Source: Candidatus Buchananbacteria bacterium (GTDB taxonomy: Bacteria; Patescibacteriota; Patescibacteriia; 2-01-FULL-39-33). From it: 64,000 nucleotides of DNA. Under the pieces are notes generated by a model that was not told the origin of the DNA, ran no database searches, and saw only the letters and a list, made by a program, of their open reading frames with translations. Shown in pieces: positions 1 through 55,298 of the stretch; position 1 is the first letter of the stretch; each line of letters begins with the position of its first letter. Made by a program: the position numbers and the translations under genes. The stretch covers positions 6,823 to 70,822 of the forward strand of contig CAISTG010000034.1 of the NCBI GenBank assembly GCA_903888345.1. The letters are read 5' to 3'.

Positions 1-113
1 ACCACTAGTTGTTAGAGCGATCGCTCCGTAAACAACACCAATAATTATGAGAACGCCCACCACGCCGGCGACAATCCCCATAACCAATTTCTTGTTATTT
101 TTTTTCTCATCCA
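1..113 (-). CDS. Partial CDS (N-terminal 37 aa, continues beyond window): membrane-anchored protein
   Basis: rc of 1-113 reads MDEKKNNKKLVMGIVAGVVGVLIIIGVVYGAIALTTSG...; hydrophobic helix after a short basic N-terminus; ATG at 111-113. Confidence 0.3.
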
Positions 114-5040: not shown

Positions 5041-6087
5041 TTAAATTTCTGGTAGAGCAAAGCCTAAAGCTTGTGCCGCCTGCCAGGTTAGTTCCAGCCG
5101 ATCGATATCAACCGGTCCCACCTCGTGTTCGCTCCAGCCTTCGGCAGCATGGACAAATGTTCCGGCATGGCAAGCATATGTTAATCCGGGCTGCAAACGC
5201 ATAGTAAAGTGCAGGTCTGTCAGAGCCGGATCATAACACAGCAATCCACCTTCGTAATTGCGAATGTCGGGACGAGAATTGATGTCGTGCCGAGTCAAGG
5301 GATTGGGAACAGCGAAATTCAAGATAATCGTTCCCTTAGGCACACGATTAAGTAATTCCGTGCTAGCCGGAATCGCTTTACCAGTCACCCATAAGGCACA
5401 ATCATGACCTTGCGTTAGCGAATCAGCATGAATCAGATTATCAGCATACTCACCGGCTTCGGACCGAATTTTTTGGAATCGATCCTGATCCTGAGTATAC
5501 ATAATAACCTTAACGCCCTGTCGCGCTAAATACAAAGCCACCGCTCGTCCGATTTTCGATGTCGACCCAGTCAGAAAGACTGGGCTAGTAATCCGAAACT
5601 TGGCAAGCAGTCCCAACACCTGCTGAATGACGACCATCGCCGTTAACGTATCGCCGTGGACAACCCACGCATGCAACCGATCACCAAGCTGGTCGACAAT
5701 CCATTTACCGCCCTGTGTAATTCGCTCATCCTTAATGAGGGCACCCAATCCAATAACATCGTTATGTTCTTGCGCATACAAAACAGCGTCAAGAATCTTC
5801 TGTCGAATCCGATCCCGTTGCTTCGGGATCACAAAGTGCCAACCAAAAGTACGAGTCAAGATGGTCATTCCCTGAACTTCTAAACCGTTGACACCATGAA
5901 AAACGAATCGATCAACAACATCATAAGACTTCTTGCCGAACAAGTAAATGATCGACATTAAAGCACACAGTGGCCAGAGCCAAAAAAAATACTTACGGTG
6001 ACTAGGATGGCGATGCAAATCACCAATCCACCAAAACAACCAATTCGAATTTTCTACCCAGTGAGCAATGAATGTCATCCGCTTCAT
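5041..6087 (-). CDS. Aar-family (acyl-ACP reductase-like / shikimate-DH-like Rossmann) oxidoreductase with N-terminal membrane segment
   Basis: Blocks align by eye with cyanobacterial acyl-ACP reductase: AQEHNDVIGLGAL, HGDTLTAMVVIQQV, TGSTSKIGRAVALYLARQGVKV nucleotide-binding motif, C-terminal GW..E block. GC-rich. Strong SD AGAGGAGG. Confidence 0.55.
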   Translation of the reverse strand: MKRMTFIAHWVENSNWLFWWIGDLHRHPSHRKYFFWLWPLCALMSIIYLFGKKSYDVVDRFVFHGVNGLEVQGMTILTRTFGWHFVIPKQRDRIRQKILDAVLYAQEHNDVIGLGALIKDERITQGGKWIVDQLGDRLHAWVVHGDTLTAMVVIQQVLGLLAKFRITSPVFLTGSTSKIGRAVALYLARQGVKVIMYTQDQDRFQKIRSEAGEYADNLIHADSLTQGHDCALWVTGKAIPASTELLNRVPKGTIILNFAVPNPLTRHDINSRPDIRNYEGGLLCYDPALTDLHFTMRLQPGLTYACHAGTFVHAAEGWSEHEVGPVDIDRLELTWQAAQALGFALPEI

Positions 6088-6196: not shown

Positions 6197-6259
6197 ATTA
6201 TATCATAACAATATGTTTTTGTCAATGCTATTGACAAAAAATATATAATGTTGTATAGT
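6197..6259. promoter_or_regulatory. Back-to-back divergent sigma70 promoters sharing a palindromic -35 (TTGTCAAtgctaTTGACAA)
   Basis: Plus strand: TTGACA(6231-6236)-17 nt-TATAGT(6254-6259). Minus strand: TTGACA (rc of 6220-6225)-17 nt-TATAAT (rc of 6197-6202). Confidence 0.6.
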
Positions 6260-6346
6260 GACATATTGGAATTGTCTTTCCAATTAAATTGTACCAACAA
6301 CAGCCAGCGGCGATCAATCTGGATCGCTAAAAAAAAGGAATCCGCC

Positions 6347-6669: not shown

Positions 6670-7848
6670 CTAGAACTTCCAACAGGCCGAAACGCCGGCC
6701 GTGGCCACCTTAGTCGATATTTCACGACCGTAAACTTCATTAAGGCCCCAGCCGTAGCTGAGAGAAGTAATGACGCTAAAGCTGTCAGTCGGCGAATACT
6801 TGACGCGCCCACCAACTGCCCAGCCATTGGCATCGGGAGTCATGAAATCGGCGGTCTTGGTGATGGCCTTATTCATATACGTTACCCCGCCACCAACTGT
6901 CCAGCGCTCGTTAATGACATGGCTAGCCCCAACATTGATGGCGATATTGTCTTGCCAATTGAGGCTGACCAGTTTCACGATCGGCAACTTGTCAAAGTGA
7001 ACCTGTGCCGTGTTCAGACTGGTTTCGGAATAACCGAAGTAAGTCAGCTGTGCGACAAGCAGCCAATCAGCTCGCGGCTGATAACCAACCGAGAAATCAA
7101 GCTTCTCCGGAAACTCATACTTCAGCTTCACGTTGTCGCGGACACTGATTCCAGCATTGACCGAGCAATGCCCACGCAAATCAACTGTAACCTTCGACAA
7201 GTAATTCATGCCGACAGCGACCTGATCCGTTACCTGATACATAGCGCCGATCTGAAATCCATAGCCAAAGCCAATGGTCTGCATGTCAACACGTATCGGC
7301 AGCGGCACCCGATTGATGTCGAAGGGGCCGCTCCAGTTCATCATACTCATAACAAGTACTGGACCAGCACCAATCGACAACTTGTCAGTTAACTGTTTGG
7401 ACAGGTACGGCTTAATATAGGTTCCCGAAACCAAAGTCCGCGAATCCATGCCATACCAGATGTCTTTAAAAGACGCACCGATACCAAAGTTGGTATGGAT
7501 ATCCACGCCCCAGACCATGTCGTCGCCCAGTTTTCGGGCGTATGAAACAGCCGGCAAAATATGGATCATATCCTTGGAGGTGAACTCCTGACGCCGACTG
7601 TCTTTGTAACCAAACTTGGGGCCCATGGCCTCCATGCCGATCTCAAGATAGTTATTCGAGTCAAGCAGCTGAAACTGTCGCAACTGAAGCTTGCTGCCGA
7701 GATTGTGCGGGAACTTCGGGCCATCCGGGTCAGAGCCCAGCCCGATATCTGTGGTTCCGGTCGCCGCAATACGGCTCAAACCGCCAGCCAGTGCCACCTG
7801 ACAGACACCAAACGCCAAAATAACCAGCATCAAAGTCAGCTTCTTCAT
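6670..7848 (-). CDS. Outer-membrane beta-barrel protein, FadL/OmpP1-like (hydrophobic-compound channel family)
   Basis: Signal peptide MKKLTLMLVILAFGVCQVALA; alternating amphipathic beta-strand pattern, aromatic girdle and C-terminal ...CWKF terminal Phe. GC-rich; strong SD AAGGAGAG. Confidence 0.55.
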   Translation of the reverse strand: MKKLTLMLVILAFGVCQVALAGGLSRIAATGTTDIGLGSDPDGPKFPHNLGSKLQLRQFQLLDSNNYLEIGMEAMGPKFGYKDSRRQEFTSKDMIHILPAVSYARKLGDDMVWGVDIHTNFGIGASFKDIWYGMDSRTLVSGTYIKPYLSKQLTDKLSIGAGPVLVMSMMNWSGPFDINRVPLPIRVDMQTIGFGYGFQIGAMYQVTDQVAVGMNYLSKVTVDLRGHCSVNAGISVRDNVKLKYEFPEKLDFSVGYQPRADWLLVAQLTYFGYSETSLNTAQVHFDKLPIVKLVSLNWQDNIAINVGASHVINERWTVGGGVTYMNKAITKTADFMTPDANGWAVGGRVKYSPTDSFSVITSLSYGWGLNEVYGREISTKVATAGVSACWKF

Positions 7849-13803: not shown

Positions 13804-14910
13804 CTACTGAATAATGATTTTTATTCGTTTGCTATCGTTAGGGGTAGTATCGCGCCAATAAGGAGAAATTATGACTTCAATATTATTAATGACACCAGTT
13901 TGTGCCGCCCACGTGCGAATTTGTTGAGCAGTTTTTCCGGTAAAATTACTCTTATTAAGAGTGTCATTACCTTCGGTTAAATATGCCTTTAAAGGATAAC
14001 TAACTTTAATGATAATACTATTAGGGTTTTTGGAATCTAAAACCGTATATTTAATCTGACTAACGTCAATCGTTGTAGCCGAGAGGCCCTTGAGATCCAT
14101 CTTTTGGGTTTTCCGTGTTATTAATGCGGCTAACTGCGTTTCATCCGCCTTAACGATCTTTAAGCGAACAACCGCCGTTAAGGTGAAGGTCTTAGCCACA
14201 TCACCCAACTTCTTATCAATTTCATAACTGACTAGTTCGCCCTTAACATTAGTATTGGTCGAAGAAACGGTGGTCAAATAATCATCAACCGCTTTAGTGA
14301 CAATTTCTTTTTTGGCGAGATTAATATCGCTATCAGCAATATAGTAAGAATCGCCGCCAGTTGCCACCGCCAAAGGTTCCGCCACTTGACCGTAAATTTT
14401 ATCCTGTAACGTTGTTGCCAGCTTAATGATTGTCAGCTTACCACTAACTACTGACTGAAAGCTGGTTCCCTCTTTTGGATAAACATCAACCATAACACTG
14501 CCGCCAGCCGGAACATTAACCTCACTATTGGTGCGAACAATCACACCATTCTCAGCCTGAAATTGAGTTGTTTTAACTAACTTCTGACTCTTGGAATAGC
14601 TATTAACTACTTTAATGCGACCAACGAGGTTAGTGCCAGTAACTGGCTTCGTACTAGATGTATTATAAACAGCTGAAACCGTCGAACTAATTGTCTCAAT
14701 TATTCCACCCACAGCATCTTGATCAGCTAATTCAGCTGAAGTCGATGAGGTTCTAATCTCGGTGACAAAATTTAAATTAACCGTCTGAGCATCTGCCGTA
14801 ATCACTATAGTTGCCTGTGAATAAAACATTAAAAAAACAGCACACAAAATCATCGCCGCAAAAACGATAAAGGTGATGGAAATATTGCGATAAAGATTAA
14901 GTCGGCCCAT
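13804..14910 (-). CDS. Hypothetical membrane-anchored protein (N-terminal TM, extracytoplasmic Thr/Ser/Val-rich domain)
   Basis: 368 aa ORF downstream of dnaE; no recognisable motif. Confidence 0.55.
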   Translation of the reverse strand: MGRLNLYRNISITFIVFAAMILCAVFLMFYSQATIVITADAQTVNLNFVTEIRTSSTSAELADQDAVGGIIETISSTVSAVYNTSSTKPVTGTNLVGRIKVVNSYSKSQKLVKTTQFQAENGVIVRTNSEVNVPAGGSVMVDVYPKEGTSFQSVVSGKLTIIKLATTLQDKIYGQVAEPLAVATGGDSYYIADSDINLAKKEIVTKAVDDYLTTVSSTNTNVKGELVSYEIDKKLGDVAKTFTLTAVVRLKIVKADETQLAALITRKTQKMDLKGLSATTIDVSQIKYTVLDSKNPNSIIIKVSYPLKAYLTEGNDTLNKSNFTGKTAQQIRTWAAQTGVINNIEVIISPYWRDTTPNDSKRIKIIIQ

Positions 14911-15035
14911 ATTGCAAGTTAATGAGAAGAAGCCAATTTAATAAAAAACTATCAAAATTCGCTGAACTATGCTTCTGCTGTTTATTATAACACAAATTCA
15001 ATAAAAGACCTACTAATTGTGGATAAGTTTAACCA

Positions 15036-23747: not shown

Positions 23748-23874
23748 GGTAACTGATTATGACTAATACCCTAATCATACTTCAATTCGAGTTTTTAGTA
23801 AAATTATGATAATTTATTTTATCTAAATTTAGATAATTTTAATCTAACTAAAAATGTTACAGTGGATAAGTATC

Positions 23875-23903
23875 TTGACAAAATTTGATATATATGATAT
23901 AAT
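23875..23903 (+). promoter_or_regulatory. Perfect-consensus sigma70 promoter (TTGACA-17-TATAAT)
   Basis: ttgaca aaatttgatatatatga tataat. An upstream DnaA-box-like AGTGGATAA (rc TTATCCACT) ends 5 nt 5' of the -35. Confidence 0.65.
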
Positions 23904-24013: not shown

Positions 24014-24511
24014 ATGAAGCAGAACAACGAACTCCGCCATGCCCTGACCATCGTGACCGTCATCATGACTGGTTTGCTGTTTATTGGGAAGTTCTTCCCG
24101 ATCAACCAGCACCCGGAACTCCAATGGCTGCAACACGATATCACGCTGTTTGGCTGGATGCTGAGCCCAATCGTCCTGATGCTGTTCTCGGCCTGGAGCT
24201 TCCAGTTCCTGACCGAGAGCTGGAGCGTGGTTTTGCGATACGGTGCCAAGAGCTTCCAGCTGTCCCCACCTTGGTGGCTTGGCCTGATCGCGGGACTAGT
24301 CATAATTGTGCTGACGCTGGTCAACGCAGCTCAGCTAGCCTTGCGAACAATCAACCTTGATCCGGTATCTCAGCAAACCGGGGGGGTTGTTCCGATTTTG
24401 GCAGTTGATGCCCTACTCATCGTCGGGCTCTCACTTGGTTGGTCGCTGTTTAAGACCAATGCGGAAATTGCCAACTTCCTCCATCCCGAAAACCCGCCCT
24501 TCAATATCTGA
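24014..24511 (+). CDS. GC-rich 4-TM membrane protein of unknown function
   Basis: 165 aa from the ATG with SD GGGAGA; an alternative ATG at 23990 gives 173 aa. About 58% GC versus about 38% in flanking genes. It has its own promoter and terminator. Confidence 0.55.
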   Translation: MKQNNELRHALTIVTVIMTGLLFIGKFFPINQHPELQWLQHDITLFGWMLSPIVLMLFSAWSFQFLTESWSVVLRYGAKSFQLSPPWWLGLIAGLVIIVLTLVNAAQLALRTINLDPVSQQTGGVVPILAVDALLIVGLSLGWSLFKTNAEIANFLHPENPPFNI

Positions 24512-24534
24512 GGGCACCATTCAAAGCACACAAA

Positions 24535-24590
24535 AGCCGTCCCCCACCAATCTTCACAGATTGCCACGGGACGGCTTTTAAAATTTTATT
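24535..24590 (+). terminator. Hairpin terminator (AGCCGTCCC...GGGACGGCT + T-rich)
   Basis: Follows the cassette gene. Reading the other strand, the same hairpin follows the stop of 24593..24964. Confidence 0.5.
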
Positions 24591-40529: not shown

Positions 40530-40817
40530 TTATTTGCCTAAGCAAGATTCTTTAGCAGCTTTAGCGACGCGGAATTTAACCACAGTCTTAGCTGGGATCT
40601 TGATAGTTTCACCAGTAGCTGGGTTTCTACCTTCACGAGCTTTACGAGCAACTTTAACTAACTTACCGAAGCCTGGTACTACAAATTCACCATTCTTCTT
40701 TACTTCTGAATAAGCCAATGTAGTTAGGGTATCCATTAACCCAATTACATCTTTCTTTGCCAAGCCGGTCTTCTCAGCTAAGGCGCTCATAAGAGCTGAT
40801 TTAGTCATTTTAGCCAT
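40530..40817 (-). CDS. hup: HU family DNA-binding protein
   Basis: 95 aa; ...GFGKLVKVARKAREGRNPATGETIKIPAKTVVKFR arm motif. Confidence 0.85.
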   Translation of the reverse strand: MAKMTKSALMSALAEKTGLAKKDVIGLMDTLTTLAYSEVKKNGEFVVPGFGKLVKVARKAREGRNPATGETIKIPAKTVVKFRVAKAAKESCLGK

Positions 40818-40979
40818 AATCTTAAGATTATTTAATTATTAATTTTTAAAAACCTTATTTTCATTGGGGGTTTTATCCACACCCTCAATTCAATATAATC
40901 ATTATATAGTAAAAACAAAGAAAAGGCTAATATTTTGTCAATGTTTAATTCCAGCCTCAAGGCATTAAACTAACCCGAC

Positions 40980-42714: not shown

Positions 42715-43470
42715 TTAATATTTTTTATTACCAATGTTCCAGAAATAATCGTAAATACTTTTGACGCTACCGACAATTGCTTGATGATGGCAAGCGACGA
42801 CAAACGGCGGCTTGCCCGAAAATAAAACCAGCAAATTTCCGACAAACCAAATTGAAGCGGTAAAATTAATTTCTTTTGGCAACTCCCTGATTTCAATATT
42901 TTGTGCCGATAATTTTTTATTATCAATTCCAGCAAATGTTCCGATTGGTACTAAAGTCTTAGTAATAATCCCCTGCTTTTTCTTTAAACTTAAAAGCACT
43001 CGGTTAAAATCTTCCGAAAATATTTTTTGATAATTGCCCTGATGTGGGGCATCAATCGTATAAATAACCGACTTAGCCGGCAAATTAATCAATAACTTTT
43101 CAATAAAATTCTTAATCCCTTTTTGCGTATCATAAATATTAGCAAAAGGAAAATTTGCCTCGGAACGATACAACTCCGACAACGATTCTTCAAGTGAACT
43201 TGCGAGTGTTCGTTTATGATCAAAAATAGTTTGTAAAGTCTTCGGCGACTCCACCCAATAATAAGTCATCCCCTTGTAATGATTGGTCGACAAATAATTC
43301 TCACTAGCTAAGTGTTCCAAATTATCAATGGTCGTCGTTCGCGGCAAGCCGACTTTCTTAGCAACTCTAGAGGCTGGTGCCTCGCCGAGCTCAGTTAAGG
43401 CCAAATAGACCTTAATGGCATTATCCTTTAAACCTAACTCTTTGAGGATTTTTTTGAGTTGAACTGGCAT
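42715..43470 (-). CDS. TrmB-like HTH transcriptional regulator
   Basis: 251 aa; N-terminal winged HTH (LKDNAIKVYLALTELGEAPASRVAKKVGLPRTTTIDNLEHL) plus a C-terminal effector-like domain. Confidence 0.55.
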   Translation of the reverse strand: MPVQLKKILKELGLKDNAIKVYLALTELGEAPASRVAKKVGLPRTTTIDNLEHLASENYLSTNHYKGMTYYWVESPKTLQTIFDHKRTLASSLEESLSELYRSEANFPFANIYDTQKGIKNFIEKLLINLPAKSVIYTIDAPHQGNYQKIFSEDFNRVLLSLKKKQGIITKTLVPIGTFAGIDNKKLSAQNIEIRELPKEINFTASIWFVGNLLVLFSGKPPFVVACHHQAIVGSVKSIYDYFWNIGNKKY

Positions 43471-43669
43471 AAATATGGGTTATTTCGCTGTTGCTGTCGG
43501 AAAAATCCGACAGTAGTAGCCGTATTTATTATCTAAATTTAAATAAAAAAATAATATGACTTCTTGACTTTCCCGAGAATTTCAGCTAAAATAATCAATC
43601 ACTGCTATTATTATAGCAGTAAATGATTGAACATTAAAAACGGTCTAAAACCCGAAAAGGAACAGCGTT

Positions 43670-44722
43670 ATGAAAAAGAACCTGATCGTCTTCCCTGGAA
43701 CCTTTTGCCCACCCACTTACGGTCACCATGAAATCGTCAAAATGGCCGCGGAAATTTTCCCTTGTGGCGTTACGATTATGGCTTCGGCCAATCCCGATAA
43801 AGACAACTGGTTTACTCAAGAAGAACGCGCCGCCATGTGGCAAGCTTATGACCTGCCCAGTAATGTTCGCGTAACGACCCTAGATCAGATGCAACGTGAA
43901 GAAGTTGATTTTACTACTATGGTCATGGTTCGCGGTATTCGCAATCAAGACGACTATATTCATGAGCAATCCGTCATGGAACTAAATTTTAATGGTTATG
44001 GAATTAGCAAATACTTCTATATCATGACCACCGGCGAATTCCGCGAGCTGTCCTCATCGAGAGCCCGCGCTGCCGCCAGTGAACTGCGCTTAGCTGATCT
44101 AGCCAAGTATGTGCCACCGCAGATTGCAGGACAACTACTTGAATACGTCTTGCAAGCCAAAAATATTTTCTTGGTCGTCGGACGACCGGGATCAGGTAAG
44201 TCAACTTGGTTAAAGTCAGTGGTTGAAGTTGATCCTTCTGCCTACCATCTTGATGGCGATCAACTGAATAAAGAGCTGCGACCCGAACTAGTAGCAGCCT
44301 TCCCTGGCGTCGACCTGATCGAACTGGCTATGACTAACGAAGCCGCCTTGCTCGAAGTATTGGCCCCCAAATGGCTGGCACTACTGGGCGAACGGCTGAA
44401 ACAAGTACCGCCTGGTCGCAACGTCTACGTTGAAGCCGCTTATGGACTTGAAGCCAACAAACAACTTTACCGCTATCTCGGCAGTAAAGTCATTCATGTT
44501 GGTTGCCAAGATCCGGCAGTGAATCAAGAGCGGATTGCCGCTCGTGGCACCAGCCGACATCAAGCCTTCGTCGAGAAGATTCCTGATCTTTGCGAGTCGG
44601 TTATGATCGCCGCTTCCGAAAAGCTATCCCTCAAACTCGTGGACACTTCCGGCAGTCTGGAAGATCTCAAACAAACTACCAAAGACTTTGTCAGCGACCT
44701 CCATCAAGGAACCTCATCATGA
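43670..44722 (+). CDS. Fusion protein: cytidylyltransferase-like nucleotidyltransferase (HxGH) + P-loop kinase domain (NadR-like NMNAT/nucleoside-kinase or PPAT-kinase)
   Basis: N-terminal LIVFPGTFCPPTYGHHEIV (G-x-F-x-P-x-H-x-GH Rossmann motif); C-terminal Walker A VVGRPGSGKSTWL. Confidence 0.6.
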   Translation: MKKNLIVFPGTFCPPTYGHHEIVKMAAEIFPCGVTIMASANPDKDNWFTQEERAAMWQAYDLPSNVRVTTLDQMQREEVDFTTMVMVRGIRNQDDYIHEQSVMELNFNGYGISKYFYIMTTGEFRELSSSRARAAASELRLADLAKYVPPQIAGQLLEYVLQAKNIFLVVGRPGSGKSTWLKSVVEVDPSAYHLDGDQLNKELRPELVAAFPGVDLIELAMTNEAALLEVLAPKWLALLGERLKQVPPGRNVYVEAAYGLEANKQLYRYLGSKVIHVGCQDPAVNQERIAARGTSRHQAFVEKIPDLCESVMIAASEKLSLKLVDTSGSLEDLKQTTKDFVSDLHQGTSS

Positions 44723-45387
44723 AAACTGAAATCAAAGCCAGGTTGAAACAGCGCTTTGCGCTGCTGTGTAAAAGATTTGCGGAAGCCAAGCAACTTACCG
44801 ATACTGATGCCAAGATTGAGAAGTGGTGGAAAGTTCTGGATGAATGTTATAGTGCTAGCCAGCGTGCTTACCACAATTGGGAACACGTTGCCGCGTGCTT
44901 AGAGGAGTTCGATCGGGTCATTCACCTGTTCGATAATCCCCTTGCCGCTGAAGCCGCAATATTCTTCCATGACGCGAAATACGATCCTTTCGCCACCGAC
45001 AATGAAGCCGTTAGTGCGGAAATGCTCGGAGAATTTTACGCTGACTTTGGTTGGCCGGACACTATTGCCAAGAAACTGGTTAATAGCACCGACCATAAGG
45101 CGACCAGCAAAGATAACGACGAGCAATTGCTCTGCGATATCGACCTGGCAATTCTGGGTCAGCCGTGGCCTCGCTACATCTGTTACGCCCAGGATATTAG
45201 AAAAGAATATCAAGCGGTACCTCTGGCTGCTTATCGCACCAAACGGATCGAGGTTTTGAAGAAACTTCGCGACCGTGAACCACTATTTCAGACGGAATAT
45301 TTCCAGCGCCAGTATAAGCTGAACGCCGAGAGCAATCTGACTGCCGAAATCATGGCCCTGGCGCATGAGCAGTTCCCTAACTACTAA
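44719..45387 (+). CDS. HD-domain metal-dependent phosphohydrolase (start overlaps upstream stop, ATGA)
   Basis: 222 aa from MKTEIKA; HNWEHV and FFHDAKYD motifs (H...HD...D); translationally coupled to 43670..44722. Confidence 0.55.
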   Translation: MKTEIKARLKQRFALLCKRFAEAKQLTDTDAKIEKWWKVLDECYSASQRAYHNWEHVAACLEEFDRVIHLFDNPLAAEAAIFFHDAKYDPFATDNEAVSAEMLGEFYADFGWPDTIAKKLVNSTDHKATSKDNDEQLLCDIDLAILGQPWPRYICYAQDIRKEYQAVPLAAYRTKRIEVLKKLRDREPLFQTEYFQRQYKLNAESNLTAEIMALAHEQFPNY

Positions 45388-45479
45388 GCGCACCTTTACG
45401 TCCCGAACAACAAATTTGTTCGGGACTTTTTATTTACAAAAAAACCGAGCCTCGCGGCTCGGTTTTTCTTATATAGCTA

Positions 45480-52547: not shown

Positions 52548-52560
52548 TTCATTAGTATTA

Positions 52561-52728
52561 CCCGTTCCCAGGTGCGACCATTTGAAAATATTGTGCTGAT
52601 TTTATGCGAGAACGACTCAAAAATTATCGCAAGCGATGGCGTCAGATAATTTTTAGGAGTGAAGCATAAAATTCAGCCATGATTTTCAACCGGTCGCGAT
52701 TCTTGCTCCACTTCTTCTAAAGAAGTGG
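52561..52728. repeat. Copy A of a ~170-nt structured repeat (between map stop and ruvX start)
   Basis: About 85% identical to copy B; closing helix GGTGCGACC...GGTCGCGAT; terminal hairpin CCACTTCTTctaaAGAAGTGG. Confidence 0.75.
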
Positions 52729-52740
52729 AAAGATAAATTA

Positions 52741-53511
52741 TTATTTCGTTAAAATCTTAAAACCATCGTCAGTCACTGCTACCGTATGTTCAAAATGCGC
52801 CGACAAGGATTCGTCAGCCGTGACAATCGTCCAACCATCGTCGAGCGTATCAACCTCCCAGCCACCAGCATTAACCATCGGTTCGATCGCAATTACCATA
52901 CCAACCTCTAAGGTCAAATCGCGAGTATCATAAGCTGGCCAATAATTAGGAACCTGTGGATCTTCATGCGCCGCAAAACCAACACCATGACCACACAATT
53001 GCCGCACCACCGTGAAACCATTCTTTTCGACGACTGACTGAATGGCTTTACCGATATCTGATAATTTGTTACCTGGTTTTACCTTTTTAATGCCAGCGCC
53101 AAGCGCTTCTTGAGTGACTGACATTAATTTCTTGGCCGCCGGAGAAATTTTTCCCACGGCAACCGTCCGAGCCATGTCAGTAAATAATCCTTTATACTTT
53201 AAACCACAATCCAAACCAACAATATCACCAGCTTCTAATTTTCTATCAAAGGTTGGTATACCATGAACCACTTCATCATTAACCGAAACACAAAGCGCGG
53301 CCGGATAAACGCTCTCGGCCCAAGCCGCTTCATAATTCTTAAAACTACCCTCAGCCCCAGCCGCCTCAATTAACTTTTCGGCATAATCATTAAGCTCACC
53401 GGTAGTAATCCCCGGCTTAACCTTTTCGATGACTAAATCCATAATCTTCGACAGGATCTTCCCGCCCTCAGCAATGGTCTTTATTTGTTCTTTAGTTTTA
53501 TATTTAATCAT
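52741..53511 (-). CDS. map: Methionine aminopeptidase type I
   Basis: 256 aa; metal ligands in the conserved D...D...H...E...E pita-bread fold. Confidence 0.9.
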   Translation of the reverse strand: MIKYKTKEQIKTIAEGGKILSKIMDLVIEKVKPGITTGELNDYAEKLIEAAGAEGSFKNYEAAWAESVYPAALCVSVNDEVVHGIPTFDRKLEAGDIVGLDCGLKYKGLFTDMARTVAVGKISPAAKKLMSVTQEALGAGIKKVKPGNKLSDIGKAIQSVVEKNGFTVVRQLCGHGVGFAAHEDPQVPNYWPAYDTRDLTLEVGMVIAIEPMVNAGGWEVDTLDDGWTIVTADESLSAHFEHTVAVTDDGFKILTK

Positions 53512-53601
53512 AAGGTTTACCCTATGGAATGGTGTAATATTATTCCTATAGGGTTATTATAATCTATTCTATAGTTTATTTCCACCTCTTTAGACTTAAT
53601 T

Positions 53602-53773
53602 CCCGCTCCCGCTCCCAGGTGCGACCGTATGAAAATATTGTGCCAATTTTTAGTGGGAACGACTCGAAAATTATCGCAAGCGACAGCGTCAGATAATTTT
53701 CAGGAGTGAAGCTAAAAATTTGGCCATGATTTTCATCAGGTCGCGATTCTTGGTTACTTCTTCTAAAGAAGTG
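53602..53773. repeat. Copy B of the ~170-nt structured repeat (upstream of map)
   Basis: cccgctcccgctcccaggtgcgaccgtatgaaaatattgtgcc...ggtcgcgattcttggttacttcttctaaagaagtgac aligns colinearly with copy A. Confidence 0.75.
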
Positions 53774-54028
53774 ACAAAAGGATATTTCTTGCTCTTGTCA
53801 CTTTTTTCTAGAAAAAAGTAACCAAAAAAGTCGCGACGGCATAAAACATGGCCAAATTTTAAACTTCATTCACTAAACCAAAAACGCTGTCGCTGTTTTG
53901 GTTTGCCCTAACGGGCCGTTCATTCCCGTTTAAAATTGGCACAAGTTTTATTCATGTCGCAAGACGGGGACGGGAACGAAAAAAGTGTCTAAATTTAAAC
54001 AAAATAAATAATATTGTGGATAAACTAC

Positions 54029-54057
54029 TTGACAAAATATAATAGCCGTGCTATACT
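54029..54057 (+). promoter_or_regulatory. Sigma70 promoter (TTGACA-17-TATACT) with perfect DnaA-box-like TGTGGATAA ending 5 nt upstream
   Basis: tgtggataaactacTTGACAaaatataatagccgtgcTATACT; same arrangement as the promoter at 23875. Confidence 0.6.
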
Positions 54058-54163
54058 TATTTATTAACCTAATGACATTAGTCAAAGGGTTTATGGCTCA
54101 AAACGGTTAAGTTGACCGTTAAAAGCCCCGAAAACAGTACCTACAACCCAAGGAGACAGTATC

Positions 54164-54553
54164 ATGGCACCGAAGAACCAGAAGAGCGACAGCAAGGACG
54201 GCAAGGGCAAGGGCGAAGCGAAGCGCAGCGTTTTCGATGGAAACGCACCGCGCGAAAGCAAGTGCCTCACCCCCAAACCGGCGTACAGCCTGGAGAGCGT
54301 GATGCGCGAACTGCGGCGGCGGAAGAACGTTGCCCAGGCCGTCGTCCCGGTCCCCAAGAGCGACCGGACCCTTACAGTCATCTTTCACACACCCAAGGCT
54401 TTGGGCATCCGGATGCTCGGCGGCCTCGACTATCTCGCCAAGGCCCACGGCTACGGTTCGCTCCTGATCAGCCAGGAGGAGTTCAATGACCTGGTCAAGG
54501 CCAAGAAGATCAAGCCGTTCGTCGCGTTGAAGGATGCGACGGCCGCCGACTAA
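54164..54553 (+). CDS. GC-rich small basic protein of unknown function (129 aa, Lys-rich disordered N-terminus)
   Basis: Strong SD AAGGAGA 8 nt upstream of ATG; about 60% GC; own promoter and terminator. Confidence 0.55.
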   Translation: MAPKNQKSDSKDGKGKGEAKRSVFDGNAPRESKCLTPKPAYSLESVMRELRRRKNVAQAVVPVPKSDRTLTVIFHTPKALGIRMLGGLDYLAKAHGYGSLLISQEEFNDLVKAKKIKPFVALKDATAAD

Positions 54554-54574
54554 TCCCAAGCGTCCGCACATATA

Positions 54575-54616
54575 CGCCCCGAGCTAGCAATAGCCCGGGG
54601 CGTCATCTTTTTATTT
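54575..54616 (+). terminator. Rho-independent terminator (GCCCCG...CGGGGC + T-run)
   Basis: cgccccgagctagcaatagcccggggcgtcatctttttattt. Confidence 0.6.
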
Positions 54617-55298
54617 AACTTTTATTCCAATCTATCTTACTTCTCAAGTCAGTCACCAATAATTTAATTATTTGTTGCTGAACCTTTTCAATTGATTGCT
54701 CGCCATTAATCTTGCTTAACAATCCCTGCTCTTCATAAAACTTGACGATAGCGTCAGCCTCACGATGATAAACCTCTAATCGTGATTTAACGGTTTCTTC
54801 TTTATCATCATCACGTTGAAATAATGATTCACCGCAAGTATCGCAAATCAATTGATCTTTTGGTGGTGAATATTTCAAATGCCAAGTATGGCCATTTTTA
54901 CAAACCCGGCGCCCGGACATCCGTTCAACGATGGCCTCATCAGAAACATTAATTAAGAAAACTCGGTCAACAGTCGTGATCTGGCTCAGATATTGGGCCT
55001 GTTCTAAAGTCCGTGGAAAACCATCCATCGCATAGCCAAGACTGCAATCATCTTTTTTAATTCTGTCGGCCACCAAACGATTAACTAATTCGGTCGGCAC
55101 TAATTTCCCATTATCCATATATGAGGCCACCTCTTGAGCTAAGGGATTGTTGGTTTCCGCTTTTATGTTTTGTAAAATAACACCAGTAGAAATATGAGGA
55201 ATATCAAAAGTATTAGCGACTAATTCAGTCTGCGTCCCCTTGCCAGAAACTGGTGGTCCCAAAAAAATAAGTTCGAACGGTTTGTCATTTAAAGGCAT
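54615..55298 (-). CDS. adk: Adenylate kinase (long, zinc-lid form)
   Basis: P-loop GPPVSGKGTQ; lid with CKNGH...CDTCG zinc ligands. Confidence 0.9.
   Translation of the reverse strand: MPLNDKPFELIFLGPPVSGKGTQTELVANTFDIPHISTGVILQNIKAETNNPLAQEVASYMDNGKLVPTELVNRLVADRIKKDDCSLGYAMDGFPRTLEQAQYLSQITTVDRVFLINVSDEAIVERMSGRRVCKNGHTWHLKYSPPKDQLICDTCGESLFQRDDDKEETVKSRLEVYHREADAIVKFYEEQGLLSKINGEQSIEKVQQQIIKLLVTDLRSKIDWNKS

Follow-up and report, generated by a model that had tools for sequence, protein, structure and literature searches.

A predicted composite promoter class and its GC-rich accessory genes in Buchananbacteria-like Patescibacteria

The described systems that come closest to the locus reported here are phage morons and integron gene cassettes. 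We compared both with a gene of 129 amino acids (aa) that lies between adk and map in a 64,000-nucleotide stretch (hereafter, the window) of contig CAISTG010000034.1 from Candidatus Buchananbacteria bacterium, a member of the Patescibacteria or candidate phyla radiation (CPR). As in phage morons, the gene forms a unit with its own promoter, open reading frame (ORF) and terminator, deviates in composition, sits between conserved genes and varies among relatives. However, its site is a housekeeping operon (secY, adk, map, ruvX, recO) of a cellular genome and not a prophage, units of this kind share one elaborate conserved promoter, and their deviant composition persists over long divergence. PHROGs gave no match, and the few matches found when IMG/VR was scanned with the promoter module, the composite promoter pattern and the two cargo proteins of the window (see below) lay inside phage coding sequences (CDSs) or were short transmembrane matches. 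The resemblance to integron cassettes consists in small unclassifiable single ORFs being exchanged behind a resident promoter, which can be CDS-precise. In contrast to such cassettes, the 3' element in the window is a 30-nt GC hairpin with a T-run and not attC-like, the units are single and dispersed, each with its own promoter copy, with no array seen and, though no scan aimed at integrases was made, none in view; in roughly half of the exchanges the leader is replaced as well. By inspection, no GTTRRRY/RYYYAAC core pairs were present at the junctions of the window or of the related loci L106 and L017, nor was any attC-like or repeat signature, and an integron cassette was therefore rejected. 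We consider it fairly probable, from comparison of sequences, that the 129-aa unit is real and that its control region belongs to a composite promoter class that would mark rapid gene turnover and co-regulated accessory genes rich in G+C at third codon positions (GC3).

The unit runs against its surroundings, as nearly all genes of the window (GC content, 40.3%) are on the minus strand, including adk (54615-55298), map (52741-53511) and the adjoining secY and ribosomal-protein cluster. The preliminary description of this DNA, made from the letters alone, had reported a single-gene cassette of about 60% GC encoding a basic protein with a Lys-rich tail behind a ribosome-binding site, and all of these were found where it had placed them. 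The GC content is 56% across the block (54076-54650) and 62% within the CDS (54164-54553, plus strand), whereas the AT-rich composition of the host extends over the promoter and the initial ~20 nt of the leader, GC climbing from ~54080. The plus frame has GC1/GC2/GC3 values of 0.59/0.42/0.85, and since GC3 is only 0.58 in an antisense ORF (54119-54571) that is longer, the plus strand was taken as the coding one. With host genes at a GC3 of ~0.37 to 0.40 (adk 0.35, map 0.40), the codon usage of the gene is foreign to its host. The protein (pI 9.9, net charge +10.7) is soluble without a hydrophobic segment and consists of a Lys-rich N-terminal tail of ~37 aa and a core of ~90 aa; from the charge of +11 and the tail one might guess that it binds nucleic acid. 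It is preceded by a 5' leader of ~100 nt (54065-54163) with two small hairpins and the ribosome-binding site AAGGAG at 54150-54155, 8 nt upstream of the ATG at 54164. Downstream, a predicted intrinsic terminator (54574-54612), called a GC-clamp terminator in the preliminary description, reaches to 3 nt from the adk stop codon (54615-54617), adk being convergent. Its GC-rich stem-loop (54574-54603; 13-nt arms, 92% complementary with one mismatch, and a 4-nt loop) stands directly before the T-run CATCTTTTTATTT, and was seen by a repeat finder and, as a closed hairpin, by RNA folding; a simple terminator scan did not list it, probably owing to the one internal mismatch. The feature is thus a predicted stand-alone transcription unit of promoter, leader, one CDS and terminator.

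The promoter of the 129-aa gene and its relatives

The predicted sigma-70-type core promoter (54028-54057, plus strand) consists of CTTGACAAAAT, which holds the -35 hexamer TTGACA (54029-54034), a 17-nt spacer, and the extended -10 element TGcTATACT, with TG at 54049-54050 (-15/-14) and TATACT at 54052-54057. It is the best match between 52500 and 55500 (11 of 12 positions), its spacer lies within the 16 to 18 bp of sigma-70 promoters, and it is the TTGACA-17-TATACT promoter of the preliminary description. Two further elements stand upstream: the 9-mer TGTGGATAA (54015-54023), which ends 5 nt before the -35 hexamer and is centred at about -45, and the near-palindrome TCTAAATTTAAA (53988-53999), whose centre is at about -70.5 if transcription starts 7 nt after the -10 element. 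A sister promoter (23822-23903, plus strand) repeats this arrangement with TCTAAATTTAGA at 23822-23833 (centre about -82.5), AGTGGATAA at 23861-23869, TTGACA at 23875-23880, a 17-nt spacer and TATAAT at 23898-23903, the palindrome and the 9-mer box being 30 nt apart here and 18 nt apart in front of the 129-aa gene. Its cargo, the first cassette of the preliminary description (24014-24583, plus strand), encodes a 165-aa four-helix membrane protein with a GC3 of 0.70 and has its terminator at 24532-24583.

That the two cassettes share a specific promoter module, as had been suggested, was borne out. When GTGGATAA-N4-CTTGACAAAAT (GTGGATAANNNNCTTGACAAAAT) was searched with up to three mismatches, it matched only at 23862 and 54016 in the 64 kb, both times exactly; 0.02 matches were expected from shuffled sequences and none of 100 shuffles reached two. 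This also speaks against the module being the generic promoter of most genes, and it recurs in related genomes. The details required some correction. The reported 19 identities in the upstream match are right, but the strings compared are of 24 and not 23 nt, and their last 4 nt lie beyond the -35 hexamer, at which they had been said to end. Moreover, the two halves of the module are not equivalent. Seven of the 12 TTGAC(A/T)-16..18-TAnnnT promoters of the window read TTGACAAAA, so CTTGACAAAAT, which accounts for 11 of the 19 shared positions, represents the generic strong -35 region of this genome, whereas GTGGATAA is absent upstream of the other ten consensus promoters. The upstream palindrome had been missed altogether and was first noticed through a stray BLAST match; in the form TCTAAATTTA(G/A)A it occurs exactly only at 23822, 43532 and 53988, each time upstream of a GC-richer plus-strand unit. 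The specific signal, as read from these occurrences, is the 8-mer GTGGATAA together with this palindrome.

Scanning one genome per species for 185,579 species, we obtained 35 matches to the exact module, of which 17 were in metagenome-assembled genomes (MAGs) of Patescibacteria, with up to five per genome. These belong to Candidatus Buchananbacteria, unclassified Patescibacteria and one Uhrbacteria, and they also keep TYTAAATTTAG upstream and TGnTATAAT downstream. The remaining matches are scattered and most are chance-like, without the surrounding promoter features. In four MAGs labelled as uncultured Gammaproteobacteria (L004, L005, L007, L018), the strict module stands before a plausible -10 element without the upstream palindrome, and in two of them ATPase-like ORFs follow; chance, wrong labels on the bins or a broader occurrence of the box with the -35 region may each account for them.

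Metagenomes of the Joint Genome Institute were then scanned with a composite pattern (TAAWTTTAR, 14 to 32 nt, TGGATAA, N5, TTGACAA). Among the 85 loci recovered, about 50 are true promoters with a -10 element at the right distance, 44 of them non-redundant (-10 at 17 nt), and seven are dispersed on a single 958-kb contig (L039; Ga0265297_10000004); in 2.9 million viral contigs the pattern had one chance-like match. Genomes of this group occur in groundwater and bioreactor samples (JGI 3300029288, 3300014208). The consensus reads ttatTTTat.TAAaTTTAGatAaa - N - tGTGGATAAA...cTTGACAAAAT.tt..a..T.TGcTAtaaT..tatatT. Several of its positions were not imposed by the pattern and are conserved all the same, namely the G before and the A after TGGATAA, the AAT after TTGACAA, T.TGcTAtaaT and a T-rich tract before the palindrome. 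Of 41 sequence clusters, 39 have either 18 to 20 or 28 to 31 bp between palindrome and box (p = 4e-15 relative to a uniform distribution over 14 to 32). With the start assumed 7 nt after the -10 element, the box is centred at about -45 and the palindrome at about -71.5 or -82.5. We accordingly defined the class as TAAWTTTAR, 18 to 20 or 28 to 31 bp, (T/A)GTGGATAA, N4, CTTGACAAAAT, a 17-bp spacer and TGnTAnnnT. The promoter of the 129-aa gene falls within this definition, with the palindromic element at 53988 separated by 18 bp from a perfect box and with the -35 hexamer and the extended -10 behind them, and its control region is, judged by these conserved features, a specific, conserved and phased composite promoter of Buchananbacteria-like Patescibacteria.

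Cargo genes and turnover behind the promoter class

The gene order secY-adk-gap-map-ruvX-recO is kept in L039 and in L041/L042, and the nearest Adk proteins (76 to 82% identity) carry the names Buchananbacteria or Patescibacteria. The adk-map gaps of these loci (681 nt in L039, 1065 nt in L041/L042) contain a promoter of the same class, antisense to the operon (...ctaaatttaaac...tATGGATAAatatATTGACAAAAA...tgcTATAAT in L039 and ...tttaaatttagat...TGTGGATAAatgcATTGACAAAAA in L041), which is followed by AAGGAGA, a soluble protein of 64 to 72 aa, a membrane protein of 62 to 65 aa and a terminator beside the adk stop codon; the terminator of L039 resembles the one in the window (CCCCGAG...CCCGGGG). 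L054, with a Map protein 84% identical, has the same small-protein family, its promoter standing directly beside map. In L030 (Map 84%), the leader is homologous to that of L054 and the gene that follows, of 143 aa, is unrelated, and L043, the closest relative by Adk (80%), has a TPR-like gene of 56 to 70% GC abutting adk. Between the window and L054, promoter similarity stops at ~54067, three bases past the inferred start, and the whole transcribed unit differs. The comparison shows the 129-aa gene as the apparent replacement, in the window genome, of a cargo family that is found between adk and map in three related lineages. The possibility that the 129-aa protein is a diverged form of the small ORF pair of L039 (64 + 65 = 129 aa) was rejected, as there is no similarity and the second ORF encodes a membrane protein.

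Two side observations concern the same gap. In L030, two extra small genes in the direction of map lie between the promoter and map (900-1790); they might be guessed to be a nucleotidyltransferase/HEPN-type pair, and they would be further evidence of this gap being an insertion hot spot. In L041/L042, a Buchananbacteria genome, a tandem array of a ~22-nt unit (gggaatgacaaaaggagggcgc) lies between the cargo terminator and adk (~5680-6040) and takes up a part of the gap, and repeats encoding 'RGNDEGSAGMTK' in L022 resemble it.

A more precise exchange is seen elsewhere. L106 and L017 share 88% identity over a 1.5-kb upstream flank and on through promoter and leader, ending immediately ahead of the ribosome-binding site. 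The stretch without relationship that follows corresponds exactly to the two CDSs (288 versus 440 nt, encoding 87 versus 135 aa), and within a few bases of the stop codons homology returns at a hairpin that is conserved. In L119 the site is occupied by a different gene again. Altogether, four of the seven to eight groups of orthologous sites display replacement or presence/absence directly behind the promoter, and three retain their cargo, which has diverged more than the upstream flank.

The cargo genes have a common composition. Downstream of the presumed start, GC is 5 to 7 points above the locus mean, while the promoter itself is 25 points below it. The mean GC3 of the first ORF is 0.60 versus 0.49 for the other long ORFs of the same loci (higher in 26 of 35; Wilcoxon p = 4e-6), and the cassettes of the window, with 0.70 and 0.85 against 0.40, are extreme. 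Of 20 cargo proteins, a DEAH helicase alone reached a Pfam threshold, and many have signal peptides or membrane helices. Since orthologous cargo pairs have dN/dS values of 0.18 to 0.53 and are thus under purifying selection, they are real genes. GC-rich orthologous pairs with dS between 0.55 and 0.76 have a GC3 of 0.74 to 0.79 in both members, so the GC-richness is persistent and not the fading mark of a recent import. The GC3 of the ribosomal-protein genes in the window is ordinary, which speaks against translational selection of a simple kind as its cause; biased gene conversion where recombination is frequent would be an attractive candidate. Comparison across these loci shows the promoter class to be associated with small, mostly unclassifiable, GC3-rich genes that appear to turn over rapidly. 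As a separate observation, one promoter of the class (L025, 1286-2000, and the same site in L019) is followed by a 650- to 900-nt stretch without a convincing ORF, in which a second GTGGATAA occurs just after the -10 element and behind which small CxxC proteins are encoded. A segment of ~45 nt is 94 to 98% identical across four otherwise diverged loci (L025, L019, L063 and L067), and non-coding RNA or a leader element would be possible identities.

The 129-aa protein itself is nearly without family. It matched only itself among 5.8 billion clustered proteins and in an exhaustive phmmer search of 1.84 billion representatives, and neither it nor the 165-aa protein had a family in Pfam, PHROGs, NCBIfam or PADLOC. 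The homology search proposed in the preliminary description yielded one homologue, P0122 (L106:6088-6351, minus strand; 87 aa, GC3 0.79), in a related CPR genome, where it was found among the cargo ORFs. It aligns with residues 38-121 (35% identity, pairwise E = 3e-13), shares the motifs ALG..LGGL.(Y/F)L.K and DLV..K.I.PF.A, and lies in a different neighborhood, near fusA, behind another copy of the promoter class; a profile search recovered it and no other homologue. The pair has a dN/dS of ~0.46 (pN 0.41 < pS 0.61, with dS saturated), and the gene thus combines codon periodicity, a ribosome-binding site and a homologue under purifying selection. A search of PDB sequences with the two-sequence profile gave no match at E up to 10, and AlphaFold2 models (pLDDT 51.6 from the single sequence, 43.9 for the core with the two-row alignment) were too poor for fold comparison. 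By these protein-level comparisons the gene is real, native to the lineage and nearly family-less.

A bolder reading of the turnover, which we regard as a possibility with the odds against it, is that of a promoter-anchored gene-exchange system, in which dispersed, nearly identical regulated promoters with a DnaA-box-like element would act as docking and expression sites for lineage-private, GC-rich small CDSs. Swaps, sometimes CDS-precise, would proceed by a recombination route using neither attC sites nor a known integrase, and the persistent GC3 excess would reflect either that recombination, through GC-biased gene conversion, or selection acting at the transcript level. If this were true, the co-regulated orphan proteins might be a variable interface of episymbionts with their hosts.

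Somewhat less probable is a plain recent horizontal acquisition, in which a moron-like unit from a GC-rich donor would have arrived with an ordinary strong promoter, its likeness to the first cassette being a generic promoter plus a lucky 8-mer. The contrast in GC3 with the host genes, the generic CTTGACAAAAT half, the different cargo of relatives at the same site, and the 56 to 70% GC gene there in L043 would all fit. But no homologue was found in any GC-rich organism among 15 billion proteins, the sole homologue belongs to a related CPR genome, follows a promoter of the same class and is itself GC3-rich despite saturated dS, orthologous cargo genes hold a GC3 of ~0.75 over the divergence given above, and the 9-mer and palindrome recur at phased spacing in ~44 promoters. 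The earlier suggestion that the two cassettes are parallel acquisitions is therefore kept only in so far as the content of the site has turned over; the persistent GC-richness of the cargo class carries no signature of fresh import.

Candidate regulators of the promoter class

On the other strand, the 9-mer at 54015-54023 is TTATCCACA, a perfect match to a DnaA-box consensus that is that of E. coli (PMC11317965) and may not be that of this lineage. The box of the first cassette reads TTATCCACT on that strand, and among the 44 members of the class, 27 have TGTGGATAA, the perfect match, and 16 have AGTGGATAA, which matches at 8 of 9 positions. The window has three perfect boxes (15018, 40873 and 54015), all intergenic; that at 15018-15026 adjoins the -35 site of a promoter, with an extended -10 element, of the gene at 13804-14910, and that at 40873-40881 lies in the leader of an HU-like gene (40530-40817). 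By its 9-mer and by the intergenic position of the perfect boxes, the class resembles DnaA-regulated promoters (dnaA, nrd, and the B. subtilis and Caulobacter regulons), from which it differs in that one box, adjoining the -35 hexamer at a constant position, stands in place of a cluster or pair. No dnaA homologue was found in the window or in any of the related loci examined. Each site has one box and the GC skew of the window is monotonic, on which grounds a replication origin was rejected.

Class I activators of the CRP type bind at phased positions (-61.5, -71.5 and -82.5), and the C-terminal domain of the RNA polymerase alpha subunit (alpha-CTD) binds upstream (UP) elements at about -45. 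Like the promoters of class I activators, the class has a dyad element at two positions one helical turn apart, about -71 and -82 from the inferred start; unlike CRP-type promoters, its motif TCTAAATTTAGA differs from the CRP site and its core is already near-consensus. From this architecture we infer a dimeric regulator on the palindrome, at positions phased like those of a class I activator, and a second factor on the 9-mer, which would be DnaA or alpha-CTD. Together they would set the activity of an already strong promoter, and the outcome would be one co-regulated set of dispersed accessory genes.

It is rather improbable, slightly more so than a recent acquisition, that there is no dedicated regulon and that the composite is simply the canonical strong promoter of the lineage, with a UP-like AT tract and an extended -35 region, its link to accessory genes being a by-product of the need of single-gene units for a promoter of their own. 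The strict module does stand before some housekeeping genes (GreA in L008 and, in L016, a unit whose last gene encodes trigger factor), TTGACAAAA and TGnTATAAT occur generally, and the box stands where alpha-CTD binds UP elements. However, nine other consensus promoters of the window, including those of typA and other core genes, lack box and palindrome. A FadL-like gene of the window has a strong promoter (near 7960-7930) without the box, whereas its homologue in L027 (64% identity) stands behind the GTGGATAA module. In addition, a 12-bp palindrome kept at two spacings that differ by 10 bp is a typical sign of a dimeric regulator and not of a UP element.

Several points weigh against the reading that the class marks rapid turnover and a co-regulated gene set. 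The promoter, start and terminator of the 129-aa unit are predictions. The patterns force three core motifs, so that membership is biased towards the consensus, and the cargo ORF was taken as the longest ORF with a ribosome-binding site, while the background ORFs may include false ones. The turnover comparison covers sites behind class promoters only. The match between the promoters of the window and L054 (52 nt at 81%) is no better than that to L022 elsewhere (60 nt, 87%), so the promoter may have come with the cargo or stayed in place. As for DnaA, in E. coli many single consensus boxes are unbound in vivo and paired boxes are preferred (PMC11317965), and the class has one box per promoter, with adjacent 9-mers matching the consensus at no more than 4 of 9 positions.

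Authenticity, surroundings and significance of the locus

In AT-rich genomes, RNA genes classically stand out as GC-rich islands that have a promoter and a terminator of their own. It is nonetheless very improbable that the block is a structured non-coding RNA gene with a fortuitous ORF. The island with its strong predicted promoter and terminator does fit that signature, and the transcript folds better than shuffled sequences (z = -3.6), but the terminator and the leader hairpins supply much of this score. Three-base periodicity (GC3 0.85, GC2 0.42), a ribosome-binding site 8 nt before the ATG and a protein-level homologue with dN/dS below 1 all speak for a coding gene. At gathering thresholds Rfam found only two tRNAs in the window and no family match for the leader; with permissive settings, it gave only plant and animal microRNA models on the neighboring long hairpin, which are generic and far below threshold. 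Least probable of all is an assembly chimera or contamination, that is, a foreign GC-rich fragment joined into a CPR contig, for although composition jumps abruptly and the 129-aa protein is found, besides the 82.8-kb source contig, only on two very short contigs of other ENA assemblies, these are 100% identical to 53962-54785 and 54015-54675 and span both junctions of the block, which rules out a chimera, while the upstream junction lies inside the lineage-specific promoter, the downstream one abuts the adk stop codon, and relatives have the same architecture at the same site. For the Adk protein of the window, an exact look-up gave no further contig.

The long hairpin (53590-53990) is formed by two inverted copies of a ~190-nt palindromic intergenic repeat, which together make up a 390-nt hairpin inserted between the map promoter and the upstream element. 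Its folding z-scores are -12.9 (plus strand) and -13.9 (minus strand), the minus strand folding better by 20 kcal/mol. A solo copy (52548-52740; 87% identity over 167 nt, z -7.6) lies between the ruvX-like gene and map, a related copy is found in L030 (1-122; a Buchananbacteria MAG), and the short ENA contig L001 starts inside the repeat. From its form, the repeat looks like a miniature inverted-repeat transposable element or a repetitive extragenic palindrome. The hairpin was considered as a part of the promoter and rejected, as L054 lacks it at the corresponding site and the repeat also occurs downstream of map; on these grounds, it is probably not part of the promoter.

The third occurrence of the palindrome in the window (43532-43543) precedes a plus-strand unit (43532-45450, ~49% GC) with TTGACT-17-TAAAAT and without the GTGGATAA box. 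Its ORFs (43670-44722 and 44719-45387) encode a protein of 350 aa combining a PPAT-like nucleotidyltransferase with a P-loop kinase-like domain, and an HD phosphohydrolase of 222 aa. The unit adjoins a divergent TrmB-like regulator (42715-43470), and the syntenic site beside typA in L046 has different opposite-strand genes. Another GC3-rich gene (6670-7848, minus strand; GC3 0.62), the FadL-like one mentioned above, encodes a 392-aa protein with weak matches to FadL/BamG-like outer-membrane beta-barrels, which are unexpected in CPR. Nearby (6200-6260), two near-perfect divergent promoters, at 6231 (plus) and 6225 (minus), overlap back to back in a palindromic arrangement, TTGTCAAT...ATTGACAA, between two moderately GC-rich genes.

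The literature on CPR promoter motifs and on Buchananbacteria gene cassettes, as searched, does not describe this composite promoter class. Transcriptional regulation in Patescibacteria is almost unknown and much of their proteome is unclassifiable. An architecture of ~100 bp with two conserved upstream elements at helical phase offers a concrete, testable regulon in an uncultivated lineage, and the promoter class may serve as a handle for fast-evolving accessory genes that homology searches miss. For annotation pipelines, it implies that neither contamination nor recent transfer has to lie behind a GC island in genomes of this kind. Finally, the combination of turnover with GC-rich synonymous sites in genomes of 40 to 47% GC bears on how compositional heterogeneity may arise, whether by import, biased conversion or selection.

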